A stretch of DNA of 64,000 bases from positions 1,384,679-1,448,678 of the forward strand of contig JBFWJC010000001.1 in assembly GCA_050253415.1 (NCBI GenBank), written 5' to 3'. The stretch's first letter is position 1, and every line of letters begins with the position of its first letter. Shown here one piece after another: positions 9,078 through 19,782 of the stretch. Both the position numbers and the translations under genes were made by a program. The stretch comes from Pedobacter sp. (lineage in GTDB: Bacteria > Desulfobacterota > Desulfuromonadia > Desulfuromonadales > Syntrophotaleaceae). The notes beneath the pieces were generated by a model. It made no database searches. It saw nothing but the letters and a program-made list of their open reading frames with translations, and had not been told where the DNA came from.

Positions 9078-10106
9078 TTATGCTGCTTCACTACAAAGGT
9101 CCTCTTCGGGGGACCTTTTTCGGTCGGGATTGAGTCGAACGATCTCAATGGGCTCCCAGTTGCGTGTTTGCCCGGTCCAGCGACCGGGGTTTCTCTGCCG
9201 GGCCTGTTCGTAAACCTCCTTCCGCTTGCTCAACTTGGCGGCTTCTCGCCCATAGTGCCGATCGTCTGGCGTCACGAAGCGGATCTCACTATGCTGATGC
9301 GCGGTGTTGTACCAGTGGACGAATGCATCGACCCACCGTTGAGCTTCAAACTCAGAAGCAAAGGGGCGAGACGGATATTCCGGCCGATACTTCAAAGTAC
9401 GAAACAGTGACTCCGAGAACGGGTTGTCATTGCTGACGCCCGGTCGACTGAAGGAGGGAACGACGCCCAGGCGCTGCAACGTGGCCAGCATGGTCGAGCC
9501 TTTCATCGGGCTACCGTTATCGGAATGCAGCACTAGGCCCTTGGGATCAACCTTGTGGCGGTGAAAGGCTTCCACGCACAGCAACGCACTGTTCTGACCG
9601 CATTCTTTGGAGAAGGCAGTAGCGGCCATAATCTTACGGCTCCAGACATCCAGGATCATGTAGAGATAAAAGAACTGGCCGGTGATCGTGGACCTCAAAT
9701 AGGTGATGTCCCAAGACCACACCTGGCATGGCCCTGTGGCCACTTTCTTCCGAGGGCGGCGATGCGTGGCCGGCCGGCAGCGTTCCCGGTGGGCCAGTTG
9801 GTTCGCCTGCCGCAGAATCCGGTAAAAGGACGATTCCGACGCCACATATCGGCCTTCATCGGCCAGGCGGGGGACGATCTGCTTGGGAGACAGTTCCCGA
9901 TATATTGGTGAATTGGCAACCGACAGGACCTCCTGCCGCTCAACTGGCGTCAGCTTGTTGGCCGGTGCAGTTACTGGGCCATGATGCCGGTCCTCGTCAT
10001 CCTCCTGACGGGCCCAGCGCTGAATGGTGCGGGCAGTCAGTCCCAGCATCTGGGCGGCCGGTTTCAACCGGGCTCCCTGGCACATGGCCTCATCGACCAG
10101 TTCCAA
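9078..10106 (-). CDS. IS3-family transposase OrfB (DDE integrase core)
   Basis: WSWDITY, LHSDNGSPM, SNDNPFSESLFRTLKY. Confidence 0.92.
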   Translation of the reverse strand: MELVDEAMCQGARLKPAAQMLGLTARTIQRWARQEDDEDRHHGPVTAPANKLTPVERQEVLSVANSPIYRELSPKQIVPRLADEGRYVASESSFYRILRQANQLAHRERCRPATHRRPRKKVATGPCQVWSWDITYLRSTITGQFFYLYMILDVWSRKIMAATAFSKECGQNSALLCVEAFHRHKVDPKGLVLHSDNGSPMKGSTMLATLQRLGVVPSFSRPGVSNDNPFSESLFRTLKYRPEYPSRPFASEFEAQRWVDAFVHWYNTAHQHSEIRFVTPDDRHYGREAAKLSKRKEVYEQARQRNPGRWTGQTRNWEPIEIVRLNPDRKRSPEEDLCSEAA

Positions 10107-10120
10107 GGCCTGCTGCCGCT

Positions 10121-10636
10121 CTAACGGTCGGTGTCGTCGCCCTCGTCCCCCCAGATTTCCTGTGCTTTTTTTTTGAGAACCAGCAACGCTGCGGTTTCGG
10201 CCAACGCCTTGTCCTTGCGCCTCAGTTCCTTCTCCAACTCCTGGATACGTTTGCTCTCGGCACGCTTAGCTTGTTTGGGCTCAAGGCCAACGAGCATCTG
10301 ATCACGCCACTGCTGAAGTTGGGCGTCATGCAATCCCCGGCTGCGCAAAAAGGCGCCGAACTCTTCTTCAGAAAGCGATGCCGCTTCCAGAACGGCCGCC
10401 AGCTTCTCTTCGGCACTCCAGTCTTGTGGTCGTTTCATATTGGACAGCCTCTGCATGGATTCGGTAAAGGATGGCGGCTCGGCATTGACAGCAATACCAA
10501 GCGTATCAGCTTCACTCACCCATCGGTAGAGCGAACTGCGGGAGACCCCTATCTCCTCTGCCAATGAGACTGGACTGGGCCCATCAGGGTCGGTCATTTT
10601 CTGAATCATTAGTGCTCTGAACGCTTTGGAATACAT
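10121..10636 (-). CDS. IS3-family transposase OrfA (HTH), with an A9G slippery site near its 3' end
   Basis: HTH (LAEEIGVSRSSLYRW), KDKALAETAALLVLKKKA; T9 run at 10166-10174 on + fits programmed -1 frameshifting. Confidence 0.88.
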   Translation of the reverse strand: MYSKAFRALMIQKMTDPDGPSPVSLAEEIGVSRSSLYRWVSEADTLGIAVNAEPPSFTESMQRLSNMKRPQDWSAEEKLAAVLEAASLSEEEFGAFLRSRGLHDAQLQQWRDQMLVGLEPKQAKRAESKRIQELEKELRRKDKALAETAALLVLKKKAQEIWGDEGDDTDR

Positions 10637-11730: not shown

Positions 11731-12483
11731 TCAGTTTTGCCAAATTTTTCCAGTATTTACATCGCAGCCTGTGAGTTGGCCCCCGGCGCCTGCCCCGGTA
11801 TCCAATGATATTTCAAGTCCCTCCGTTCTTGGATTAAGAATCAGGGTATGGCCGTGCACGACGCATTGGTTCCAGCCGGTTTTATATCTCCAAAACCCCT
11901 CCCTGCTCCATAGCAGCTCATAGGGGTCCTGGTCGGCCATTCTTTTCCCCGGAACTATCCCCGCATGTACAAACAAATGATTGTCGGACTCATACCAAAG
12001 CTTTGTTGAGGCTAAAAATTTAATGTGCTCCCTAGGGATTGTCTCCAATGCCCTGCGGTAGGCGTTAAAAGTCTGAGGCTGGATCAAACCGTCATATGAG
12101 TCAATGCCATAGCTCTTTAGCGTTAAATCCCCGTGGTTTTGAAGCCACAGCCGGGTGTGCCTGAACTCTAAGGTGTCCATCCAGGCAATTTCGCAAGTCC
12201 ACAATTCTGAAACGGTATAGAGTAGGGGGACGCCCGTTTTGACCCCGGATTCAGTCAGGGCATCGAGAAATAATTGTTCATGATTGCCCCTCAGAAAAAC
12301 TGTTTGAGGGAATTGTTTTTGGAAATCGATCAAAAACTCGAGAACGCCCCGCGAATCGGGACCACGGTCAATGTAATCACCAAGAAAAACGAATTGGTCT
12401 TTTGGGCAGGGATTGATTTTGGCTATGAGGTTCTTGAGTTGATCAATGCAACCATGAATATCGCCCACTGCGATCACTCGCAT
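11731..12483 (-). CDS. PPP-family metallophosphoesterase (lambda-phosphatase/PrpA-like)
   Basis: GDIHG, GDYIDRGPDS, RGNHE, FVHAG, HGHT, LDTGA; GGAG before ATG 12483. Confidence 0.9.
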   Translation of the reverse strand: MRVIAVGDIHGCIDQLKNLIAKINPCPKDQFVFLGDYIDRGPDSRGVLEFLIDFQKQFPQTVFLRGNHEQLFLDALTESGVKTGVPLLYTVSELWTCEIAWMDTLEFRHTRLWLQNHGDLTLKSYGIDSYDGLIQPQTFNAYRRALETIPREHIKFLASTKLWYESDNHLFVHAGIVPGKRMADQDPYELLWSREGFWRYKTGWNQCVVHGHTLILNPRTEGLEISLDTGAGAGGQLTGCDVNTGKIWQN

Positions 12484-12516
12484 ATTGCATCTCCCGATTG
12501 CCAATGGTGTGCGCCG

Positions 12517-13509: not shown

Positions 13510-14586
13510 CGGATCTATCCACCAAACAAAGGCTGCGGTATAGCAACACCGCCATAAATGGTTCGCCGAAGTTGGGTACCAACCGCTTGATTGAGAAGTA
13601 TTCCGAGTTGCTCCAACACCGGCTTCGCCTGCATCACGATCGTTGACAATCCGTTTCGCTTTTTTTCCACTGGGTCGGGGTTATTCCAGCGAAACACGAC
13701 CTCGCTGAGATACCGCGGCAAGTGGCGATGGCTGACAAAATGAAAGACGCCCTGCTTGGCCCTTTCGAGAATCGCATTGAAGGATTCGGCCGTGTTGACG
13801 TGAACTTTCCCTCGGGCAAATTCCTTGATGCCGTGGTGGACCCGCTCATGTCCCGCGAACTGTTTGCCGATCGCCACATAAGGTTGCAACTGGTCTGTCA
13901 TTATCCAAGAATCGGGCGCGACCACCTGTTTGACATAGGGTGCCAGGACCGCGTAGCTGTCACCCGGGATCATGCTGGCTTGGGCTGGGCCTTTGCGGCT
14001 AACGGCCACGTGGATACAGGCTTTCTTGGTGGATTTTCCCCGGGCATGTTTCACTCCCTGTTGGAACCTCGGTTTTCCTCCAAGGTATTTTTCGTCGAGT
14101 TCAACGATACCGTCCAGCAGTCCCAGGGAAACCGCATGCCCTGCCATCATGGCCCGAATGCCATGGCCAATTTTCCAGGCGGTCTTCTGAGTGACCCCAA
14201 GCCACTTGGCCAAGAAAACCGAAGAAACGCCTTTGCTGGAGTTGATCAGGAAATACATAGCCAGCAGCCAGGTCCGAAGCGGCAGCTTGGTACTATGCAT
14301 GGGCGTCTTTGTGGTCACTGTAAACTGCCCTTTGCAGCCGCTGCATTCATACAGTCCGGGCCAAGCAGAGGTTCCTGAGAGTGACCAGGACTTCAGGCAC
14401 CCACAGTGAGGACAGACCCGACCATGGGGCCAAACGACTTTCTCGAGATACTTCCGACAGGCCCCCTCGTTTGGAAACTGTTTGCGAAACTGTTTGAGAT
14501 TCATGGAAATCCCCCTTTCTGGAGGATATTCCATCAACACTGTGACGGGTTATGTCACAGCCACCTTCTTTTGGTGGATAGATCCG
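13510..14586 (-). mobile_element. IS1595-family insertion sequence, apparently complete
   Basis: Terminal IRs CGGATCTATCCACCAAA / TTTGGTGGATAGATCCG; exact 8-bp target duplication TAAAAGTA at 13502-13509 and 14587-14594. Confidence 0.93.
13515..14540 (-). CDS. IS1595-family transposase
   Basis: Zn ribbon CPHC..CSGC, VELDEKY, MTD, HVNTAESF, LPRYLSE. Confidence 0.92.
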   Translation of the reverse strand: MLMEYPPERGISMNLKQFRKQFPNEGACRKYLEKVVWPHGRVCPHCGCLKSWSLSGTSAWPGLYECSGCKGQFTVTTKTPMHSTKLPLRTWLLAMYFLINSSKGVSSVFLAKWLGVTQKTAWKIGHGIRAMMAGHAVSLGLLDGIVELDEKYLGGKPRFQQGVKHARGKSTKKACIHVAVSRKGPAQASMIPGDSYAVLAPYVKQVVAPDSWIMTDQLQPYVAIGKQFAGHERVHHGIKEFARGKVHVNTAESFNAILERAKQGVFHFVSHRHLPRYLSEVVFRWNNPDPVEKKRNGLSTIVMQAKPVLEQLGILLNQAVGTQLRRTIYGGVAIPQPLFGG

Positions 14587-14946
14587 TAAAAGTATAAATT
14601 TGAAAAATATAAAAATTTGTATACCACATTTTTGTATAACCCTTTTTCGTGTATTTTCAGTAGCTTGAAAATTGGTAAAAACTTATATGCTTTTAGCATA
14701 ATTCTTTTTGGATAATAGAGCATTCTAATTTTTCGCCATCTGCTCAATTCTTCGAAGGCTTCCTAGGGCAGGGAAGGTGGGTAATCTGTGACTGGATCCC
14801 AGCTTATGCGGAGAAGTTAGGATTCAGATCCGAACTGGCAGTCTTGTAAATCAGGGGTTGTAAGAATGTTTGAAAAATATCCAGGTACCACTGGAGGAAC
14901 AATCTGAGACAAATAATAGGATAGCTCAAGAGTAAGCCGGGCGTAT

Positions 14947-15234
14947 CTACGAAACTAGGGGCGATTCACTTTCATTTTCACACAAAAAAACAACCTCGTT
15001 GGCCCCTTCAGGGTGGGGTTTTACATGAACATGTAGAAACGCTTCATAAGATGGATAGATACCCATCGTGCTGTACGCGTCAATACCCTTGTCCTTCACA
15101 TTCAGGTCCGTGCGCCAGCAAGTAACCACCTGCCCAGTGTGAAAAATAACACCGTCGAGAACCCTTCCAGTCCCACTGATGCCTGATTGGTCGATTTTCC
15201 TGACCAAGGTGAAAAGTTTCGGATTAGTATTCAT
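14947..15234 (-). CDS. Small uncharacterised protein, last gene of the CBASS operon
   Basis: Starts 11 nt after the HNH-SAVED stop with RBS AGGAAGG; motif R-x-x-D-x-S-G-x-S-G-T-G-x-V-x-x-G-V-x-F. Confidence 0.75.
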   Translation of the reverse strand: MNTNPKLFTLVRKIDQSGISGTGRVLDGVIFHTGQVVTCWRTDLNVKDKGIDAYSTMGIYPSYEAFLHVHVKPHPEGANEVVFLCENESESPLVS

Positions 15235-15245
15235 CTGACGCCTTC

Positions 15246-19753: not shown

Positions 19754-19782
19754 AATATAGGTACGACATATTGTGTTGTCAA
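19754..19782 (-). promoter_or_regulatory. Sigma70-type promoter of the CBASS operon
   Basis: Minus strand TTGACA-17 nt-TATATT, 42 nt upstream of the CD-NTase ATG. Confidence 0.75.

Follow-up and report, generated by a model that had tools for sequence, protein, structure and literature searches.

A putative signal-degrading brake of the Acb5 family encoded in type II CBASS operons

Introduction

CBASS, an antiphage signalling system based on cyclic oligonucleotides, is usually portrayed as a one-way alarm. Operon-encoded negative regulators exist in the form of Cap3 in type II systems and Trip13/Cap6 in type III systems, which act on the cyclase (CD-NTase, for cGAS/DncV-like nucleotidyltransferase) by deconjugation and by HORMA disassembly. 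To our knowledge, the known brakes of CBASS (Cap3, Trip13 and the transcription factor CapW) act on the cyclase and not on the signal. Here, we describe a window of 64,000 nucleotides (the whole stretch that was analysed; contig JBFWJC010000001.1, positions 1,384,679 to 1,448,678) in which a type II CBASS operon is followed, within the same run of genes, by a fifth gene encoding a protein of 95 residues. We argue that this protein belongs to Acb5, a family described until now from phages only, and that it probably serves its host as an enzyme that degrades the signal of its own operon.

The closest parallel in logic lies in type III CRISPR signalling. Crn2 and AcrIII-1 (DUF1874) are small oligomeric ring nucleases that turn a cyclic-nucleotide alarm into products with 2',3'-cyclic phosphates; AcrIII-1 is a viral anti-defence weapon, and Crn2 is a host off-switch encoded inside the type III CRISPR locus. 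According to the available text of a preprint of October 2026, CBASS typically lacks the regulated signal degradation that is typical of type III CRISPR (bioRxiv 10.64898/2026.10.26.761840). The same text describes Csx15, a SAVED-like host enzyme tied to Cas10 that degrades CBASS messengers in vitro; CD-NTases are rarely adjacent to it, and its authors regard the physiological meaning for CBASS as unclear (bioRxiv 10.64898/2026.10.26.761840).

On the viral side, Acb5 (anti-CBASS 5) was reported in 2025 as a phage homotetramer that blocks CBASS (bioRxiv 10.1101/2025.07.12.664507, hereafter the Acb5 preprint). In the available text of that preprint, Acb5 cuts both bonds of 3'3'-cyclic GMP-AMP (3'3'-cGAMP) to give 2'3'-cAMP and 2'3'-cGMP, and mutation of R10, W38 or H61 in Acb5A abolishes anti-defence activity. 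Homologues number 1480 in IMG/VR, and the family occurs in 96 sequenced phages, mostly of Streptomyces and Mycobacterium, as well as in Haloarcula viruses. The same source describes Acb1, a phage 2H phosphodiesterase that also degrades CBASS cyclic nucleotides; unlike Acb5 it is monomeric, has an unrelated fold, and cuts one bond to leave a linear product.

The fifth gene belongs to the Acb5 family

By its matches to protein families, the operon of the window is a type II CBASS composed of a CD-NTase, Cap2, Cap3 and a Cap5-like HNH-SAVED effector (Table 1), the last of which matches PDLC00739, the PADLOC endonuclease effector model. All five genes are co-directional on the minus strand, and the four CBASS genes overlap or sit within 12 nt of one another. 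The fifth gene begins 11 nt after the HNH-SAVED stop codon, the minus strand reading ...GCA TAG GAAGGCGTCAG ATG, with an AGGAAGG 6 nt 5' of the ATG. A preliminary description of this DNA had pointed to a 95-residue open reading frame here, with its own ribosome-binding site, no terminator in between and probable co-transcription; the first two statements hold, the 11-nt gap being too short to leave room for a terminator, and from this arrangement co-transcription would be expected. It is encoded on the chromosome as part of the CBASS operon, and the genome of the window has no second copy. Its product carries the features that had first drawn attention to it, namely a Gly/Ser loop (RKIDQSGISGTGRVLDGVIF, residues 12-31), a W-R pair (W40-R41) and a late HxH (H68-V-H70, followed by H74).

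A search of a large protein collection returned 241 homologues of the fifth protein at E<=1e-3, and at 50% clustering there are 318 representatives, numbers well beyond those of a chance reading frame. All 120 listed of the 241 bear the precomputed Pfam assignment PF26761 (PF26761.1), with identities of 56-96%. In a protein atlas PF26761 carries the name 'Acb5'; the top three clusters for the query score 0.91-0.92 there, two of them being mostly viral, and all 30 matches of the query have the same family set. The PHROGs family phrog_7499 matches the fifth protein as well (E 6.2e-14). Membership in PF26761 was assigned through the homologues' annotations, the atlas and phrog_7499; scans of NCBIfam, PADLOC and a copy of Pfam without PF26761 gave no match to the 95-residue protein. 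A sub-threshold match to Atu4866 on three of the homologues was rejected as noise. On these assignments the fifth protein is a member of the Acb5 family and not an orphan. The preliminary description had not recognised it as a named Cap, and it does lack a CBASS ancillary name (among the names Cap19-Cap23, our literature search found only Cap19, tied to the CapW regulator); the family itself, as Acb5 and PF26761, had already been named.

Relatives are also frequent in phages. With tblastn, 94 Streptomyces phage records match the fifth protein, and the 40 rows listed are labelled 'hypothetical protein' or are unannotated. Together with the match to phrog_7499, this agrees with the preliminary description, which placed the DxSGxSGTG motif in small hypothetical proteins of phages. 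The Acb5 domain is also found in fusions: within phage DUF2213 scaffold/protease-like proteins (P0160, P0233, P0234) and a portal protein (P0236), and joined to Clp_N (P0222), phosphomannomutase (P0258) and exonuclease (P0184). P0146 and P0232, which are long and have many matched stretches, were left out as low-complexity repeat proteins. A genome locus search with the DUF2213 fusion protein P0160 found no viral locus, and we found no mention of Acb5 fusions in the available text of the Acb5 preprint (bioRxiv 10.1101/2025.07.12.664507).

The gene has a fixed position in operons of at least seven phyla

With one genome scanned per species, relatives of the fifth protein were found to be encoded at 37 loci. 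HNH-SAVED adjoins the relative in 30 of the 37, as determined by tblastn with the window's four CBASS proteins, a proportion that holds for the subfamily and not for all Acb5, since the scan patterns came from close relatives. The effector gene lies upstream of the small gene in 29 loci and downstream of it in one (L028). All five genes are present in 22 of the 37 loci; the remaining 8 of the 30 are cut by contig ends, with L032 showing 1.35 kb of upstream sequence without a Cap3 hit. By record titles the 30 loci span at least seven phyla, namely Thermodesulfobacteriota, Chloroflexota (including Thermomicrobia), Bacteroidota, Deinococcota, Gemmatimonadota, Acidobacteriota and Cyanobacteriota. 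Two loci, L007 and L008, have identical small proteins and are not independent. The same five genes lie on plasmid pDrdI of Deinococcus wulumuqiensis NEB 479, a cultured strain that is not pathogenic, where the fifth encodes 89 residues and is annotated as hypothetical.

Searching from the effector, we found HNH-SAVED in 3 of 401 genomes of the window's phylum (3 places), 18 of 274 genomes of Hymenobacteraceae (19 places) and 11 of 125 genomes of Deinococcaceae (12 places), and each place was checked for the small gene with a family hidden Markov model and tblastn. These places are mostly the same loci as those of the 37-locus scan, only five being new. Cap3 is hit at 15 of these places, and at 14 of them the small gene belongs to the same locus; at the remaining one (L044) the contig breaks off within HNH-SAVED, and the contig that continues it (L060) has the small gene. 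It is present at all 12 Deinococcaceae places, and at none of the 16 places that lack Cap2 and Cap3 hits (L040, L041 and L046-L059).

Spacing and conservation were then compared between operons. In 29 of 32 operons the distance between the HNH-SAVED stop and the start of the small gene falls in the range of -11 to +33 nt, a 7-nt overlap being frequent. In all 18 complete operons none of the other four proteins is as well conserved as the small one, whose median identity to the window is 59%, compared with 50% for the CD-NTase, 37% for Cap2, 46% for Cap3 and 38% for HNH-SAVED. These identities show strong purifying selection on the fifth gene. Judged by gene order, it is fixed in one lineage of type II CBASS operons, namely those with a CD-NTase, Cap2, Cap3 and HNH-SAVED/Cap5. 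The proposal of a conserved fifth component of type II CBASS with phage relatives is therefore borne out by the counts: homologues are strongly enriched next to CBASS genes (30 of 37 loci) and are common in phages too.

Individual operons vary in arrangement. In Larkinella punicea (L028:7980-9483) the small gene lies between Cap3 and HNH-SAVED, a variant of the gene order; about 0.9 kb past HNH-SAVED there is a HEPN (pEK499_p136) gene, preceded by a reading frame of 209 residues. In Hymenobacter nitidus (L017:5803-7608) a second SAVED protein (602 residues; SAVED E 1.7e-36) comes after the small gene; elsewhere, a second CD-NTase begins directly after the small gene (L009:8322-8912), and a second HNH-SAVED precedes the CD-NTase (L019:2298-3422). 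Contig 28 of Deinococcus oregonensis (L032, also L063) has an HNH-SAVED gene with an internal TAG, no Cap3 hit upstream and an intact small gene, and may represent a decaying operon that has retained the fifth gene.

Pocket residues are conserved and a tetramer is predicted

We aligned 174 family members, comprising 34 operon-linked, 7 other genomic and 4 phage copies together with 129 representatives. R12, W40, H70 and H74 are each found in 34 of 34 operon-linked copies; among the 129 representatives, R12, W40 and H70 are each found in 128 and H74 in 125. In a by-eye comparison with the printed Acb5A sequence, R10 and W38 of Acb5A correspond without gaps to R12 and W40 of the fifth protein. 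The fifth protein shares with phage Acb5A and Acb5B the family, the size class and the D-x-SG-x-SGTG loop, and with Acb5A the pocket equivalents of R10, W38 and the histidines. It differs in being about 20 residues longer, with a longer W-to-His segment, in having five additional residues that are invariant in the operon clade alone, and in being encoded by a host within a CBASS operon and not by a phage. We did not find the clade motif FHTGQVV in the searchable text of the Acb5 preprint's table, which lists 1480 IMG/VR homologues.

An AlphaFold2 model of the fifth protein (predicted local distance difference test, pLDDT, 89.4) has five matches in BFVD at E<=1e-3 (E 2.4e-6 to 1.7e-5, TMq 0.63-0.67). 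All are from Streptomyces phages or Haloarcula virus, including proteins of Streptomyces phages Coruscant, VWB and Tribute and a Haloarcula virus protein, and these hosts are among those listed in the available text of the Acb5 preprint. Foldseek of the model against the PDB gave nothing at E<=1e-3, a wide VIA search gave a best Z of 5.1, inside the tool's described noise range, and a profile search of PDB sequences gave nothing below E 0.019. By these matches the fold is that of the viral members of the family and unlike known phosphodiesterases. No ring-nuclease chain (CARF, DUF1874, Csx3 or SAVED-like) is among the Foldseek or VIA matches, and the likeness to ring nucleases appears to be functional only.

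When four copies were predicted together with two cGAMP molecules, the assembly scored 0.87, compared with 0.00 for the best of three controls. Among proteins of solved structure, 20 of 30 one-chain pairs and 1 of 23 single chains attain this mark, a calibration that is only rough because a custom alignment and a ligand were used. Contacts agree between runs at 91% or above, at the least, and partner pLDDT is at least 80. The predicted tetramer has two interfaces, one along strand 27-39 and one through residues 52-69, which is the pattern that would be expected of a dimer of dimers.

Some relatives stand apart from CBASS

Copies away from CBASS genes were found in several settings. In a metagenome-assembled genome (MAG) of Geobacterales (L004:1334-1585), a copy that shares 90% identity with the fifth protein over its best tblastn segment lies near TraH conjugation genes, with no HNH-SAVED in the 1.3 kb upstream; this may be an orphan copy on a mobile element. 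Another small gene is near rpsP, KhpA and RimM (L015), and a further copy sits at a contig end (L034). In a Trueperaceae MAG (L022:2608-2886), an Acb5-like gene is flanked by ftsH on one side and by an M50 peptidase-CBS gene on the other, and a DAC-domain gene lies two genes away. This neighbour, a diadenylate cyclase, hints that some host copies may act on cyclic di-AMP (c-di-AMP) and not on a defence signal. In MAGs of halophilic Bacteroidota/Rhodothermota, three copies (L024:8001-8258, L027:8001-8237 and L035:8001-8198) adjoin glutamate dehydrogenase without CBASS genes, and this neighbourhood is a second recurrent context outside defence. Taken as a group, the stand-alone host copies hint that the family also controls ordinary cyclic-dinucleotide signalling.

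A quick tree of the alignment (174 rows, 89 columns) places all 34 operon-linked rows in one group of 49, together with the 7 stand-alone copies and 8 representatives of unknown genomic context. The four phage rows fall outside the operon group, the key branch having a support of 84 and not being starred. This topology would fit a single recruitment into the operon with later escapes, at a support that is not decisive, and it says nothing on which way the gene moved between host and phage.

Discussion

Based upon the known activity of Acb5, we consider it somewhat likelier than not that the fifth protein is a host-encoded, signal-degrading brake on its own CBASS. By analogy with Acb5A, the protein would form a homotetramer (a dimer of dimers) with two-fold symmetric pockets between protomers, in which W40 would stack on the bases while R12 and the H70/H74 pair would contact the phosphates. 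Cleavage of 3'-5' bonds would be independent of metal and would yield 2',3'-cyclic mononucleotides. From its genomic context, the enzyme would continually remove the product of the CD-NTase. Its translation would directly follow that of Cap5, often from an overlapping start, so that enzyme and effector would be made side by side. Signal from leaky or Cap2-primed synthesis would then fail to set off the DNA-degrading effector, which amounts to a threshold; signalling could be reset, and only a strong burst of synthesis at the time of infection would outrun the enzyme.

Such a brake would differ from those already described. Cap3 and Trip13/Cap6 target the CD-NTase protein and not the nucleotide signal, and unlike Csx15, the gene described here is fixed inside the CBASS operon. 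With Crn2 and AcrIII-1 it would share the logic of a host and a virus using related enzymes, in a different signalling system and with a host role that we infer. The family is already known; what appears to be new is that it holds a fixed position in CBASS operons of hosts: we found no mention of Acb5 homologues inside CBASS operons in the parts of the literature available to our search, an earlier description elsewhere being possible, and the available text of the Acb5 preprint (bioRxiv 10.1101/2025.07.12.664507) does not mention ring nucleases, host-encoded or bacterial homologs, chromosomes, Cap5 or Deinococcus. On a broader proposition we are evenly divided, namely that CBASS has a signal-degrading off-switch of its own, from the same enzyme family as the phage anti-CBASS weapon Acb5, that one type II Cap5 lineage is accordingly a tunable and possibly reversible response and not a one-way suicide switch, and that phage Acb5 and the host gene are two sides of one exchange, as are AcrIII-1 and Crn2. 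If true, this would add a regulatory layer to CBASS, explain how a DNA-shredding effector is tolerated, and provide a second case of one enzyme put to opposite uses by hosts and viruses. For annotation, it would mean that bacterial PF26761 genes are not automatically anti-defence genes of prophages.

Several observations weigh against a brake of this kind. The match of the CD-NTase to the NCBIfam model 'CBASS cGAMP synthase' (134.8 bits) lies under the 150-bit cut-off. The CdnG-Cap5 signal has a 2'-5' bond (3'2'-cGAMP; available text of PMC8568899), and a signal with such a bond might not serve as a substrate. Type II systems have a brake already, in the form of Cap3. The catalytic loop reads H-V-H-V-K-P-H where Acb5A has H-G-H, an extension by two to three residues, and proteins with the short loop put their second histidine, the counterpart of H61, at H74 in one alignment and at position 72 in a second one. 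H32, T33, Q35, C39 and R41 are invariant in the operon clade alone (34 of 34 copies, compared with 22 to 67 of the 129 representatives), and these clade-specific residues could mean a changed specificity or a protein partner. A weak terminator-like pattern with a 5-bp stem falls within the 3' end of HNH-SAVED (15332-15315). Finally, 7 of the 37 loci show no CBASS gene, indicating that the protein can also work alone, and the synteny count is bounded by the subfamily as given above.

The main rival, which we consider unlikely, is that the enzyme spares the operon's own signal and removes other dinucleotides (for example housekeeping 3'3'-cGAMP, c-di-AMP, cyclic di-GMP or side products of the CD-NTase) that could wrongly activate Cap5. 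Geobacter relatives use 3'3'-cGAMP as a normal second messenger, and stand-alone copies occur in housekeeping contexts, such as the one two genes from the DAC-domain gene in L022. In the texts available, Acb5A prefers 3'3'-linked substrates, cutting cGAMP well and cyclic UMP-AMP (cUA) partly (bioRxiv 10.1101/2025.07.12.664507), and other Cap5 systems use 3'2'-cGAMP (PMC8568899). However, the gene travels with the operon in phyla without known cGAMP housekeeping signalling, and translational coupling to Cap5 would not be required of a general insulator.

Alternatively, the protein could be a regulator without catalysis, one that binds the signal as a sponge, or binds Cap5 or the CD-NTase directly, and so tunes activation without cleavage; we regard this as rather improbable. 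The five residues invariant in the operon clade lie on or beside the strand 27-39 surface of the predicted dimer, which could equally be a surface for a partner, the catalytic loop differs in length from that of Acb5A, and the pipeline that discovered Acb5 was designed to find sponges (available text of bioRxiv 10.1101/2025.07.12.664507). In contrast, the four pocket residues, both histidines included, are invariant in all 34 operon-linked copies, which would be needless in a pure binder. A pure sponge is thus less likely than an enzyme, because the residues of activity are invariant. Among the functions listed in the preliminary description, a nuclease limiting autoimmunity and a relative of phage counter-defence genes would fit best, by way of the Acb5 family, and the sponge suggested there fares less well.

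A third possibility is that an anti-CBASS gene of phage origin landed behind the operon and persists there by neutralising a costly system and not through any service to defence. The family is mainly viral, the operon lies among mobile elements, including the IS1595-family transposase (Table 1), and the L004 copy is found beside conjugation genes without CBASS. We hold this to be quite improbable: its position and orientation are the same across 30 loci of at least seven phyla, with the other four genes intact, its product is better conserved than the other four in 18 of 18 operons, and the tree gathers the operon-linked copies into a single group, a pattern that does not suggest repeated captures (support 84, not decisive). 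It is more doubtful still that the enzyme converts the signal, such that a linear dinucleotide or the 2',3'-cyclic mononucleotides are the active ligand for Cap5 or for a second effector. Some operons do have another SAVED protein encoded immediately behind the small gene (L017), and in L028 the small gene is upstream of HNH-SAVED; yet most operons have a single effector, and solved relatives of Cap5 are described, in the accounts available, as activated by intact cyclic nucleotides. That the small protein is a substrate to which Cap2 conjugates the CD-NTase, as had also been suggested, is scarcely credible, since linkage to Cap2/Cap3 operons is the sole point in its favour, the clade has no conserved lysine (K72 occurs in 12 of 34 operon-linked copies; K6, K13, K47 and K49 outside the conserved columns; none among the invariant or near-invariant ones), and the enzyme family also works in phages lacking Cap2.

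Operon boundaries and neighbouring genes

Coordinates are collected in Table 1. Promoter-like patterns as in the site upstream of the CD-NTase number 8 in the region, compared with 8.9 +/- 2.5 in shuffles, and the hairpin past the fifth gene (read 14895-14880) folds no better than shuffles (z 0.68). Four sequencing runs gave five short identical contigs (167-249 nt), none of which spans the junction of HNH-SAVED and the fifth gene; the libraries may be DNA.

Table 1. Features of the CBASS operon and its surroundings (positions in the window, except in the last row)
Feature	Position	Strand	Basis
CD-NTase, first gene of the operon, 345 aa	18674-19711	-	Pfam DncV-like_NTFase E 3.1e-14; PADLOC cyclase PDLC00795 E 2.7e-132
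Cap2, E2 + E1 fusion, 578 aa	16945-18681	-	Pfam Prok-E2_B E 2.3e-33, ThiF E 8.9e-19; PADLOC E1-E2 PDLC00837 E 2.9e-164
Cap3, JAB deconjugating peptidase, 178 aa	16473-17009	-	Pfam Prok-JAB E 2.2e-15; PADLOC JAB PDLC00896 E 3.6e-52
HNH-SAVED effector, Cap5-like, 404 aa	15246-16460	-	Pfam SAVED E 5.9e-42; PADLOC PDLC00739 E 8.5e-119, SAVED_HNH PDLC01997 E 1.8e-110
Spacer, 11 nt	15235-15245	-	Shine-Dalgarno-like AGGAAGG overlapping the HNH-SAVED stop codon; sequence reading
Fifth gene, Acb5-family protein, 95 aa, ATG start	14947-15234	-	List of open reading frames; pocket residues R12, W40, H70, H74
Promoter-like site TTGACA-17-TATATT (11 of 12), upstream of CD-NTase	19754-19782	-	Pattern match only
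Weak terminator-like hairpin and U-run, 52 nt past the fifth gene	14880-14895	-	Pattern match; candidate operon end only
IS1595-family transposase	13515-14540	-	DDE_Tnp_IS1595 E 8.1e-38; zinc ribbon
Calcineurin-like metallophosphoesterase	11731-12504	-	E 4e-18
Overlapping open reading frames	9078-10106 and 10121-10636	-	Look like a two-part transposase
Neighbours of the Acb5-like gene in L022	1505-2608, 2899-4749, 4770-5351

Among solved chains, the CD-NTase is nearest to 8ysc/8ysd (E 4.9e-101) and next to 7ljo (E 1.7e-23), which is named CdnB in the available text of PMC12804361, and the solved relatives of HNH-SAVED are 8ysq (E 5.2e-93) and 7rwk (E 3.3e-53). The nearest solved relatives of the effector (8ysq) and of the cyclase (8ysc/8ysd) come from one deposition series. 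Directly downstream of the operon lies the IS1595-family transposase, and the metallophosphoesterase gene is found between insertion sequences.

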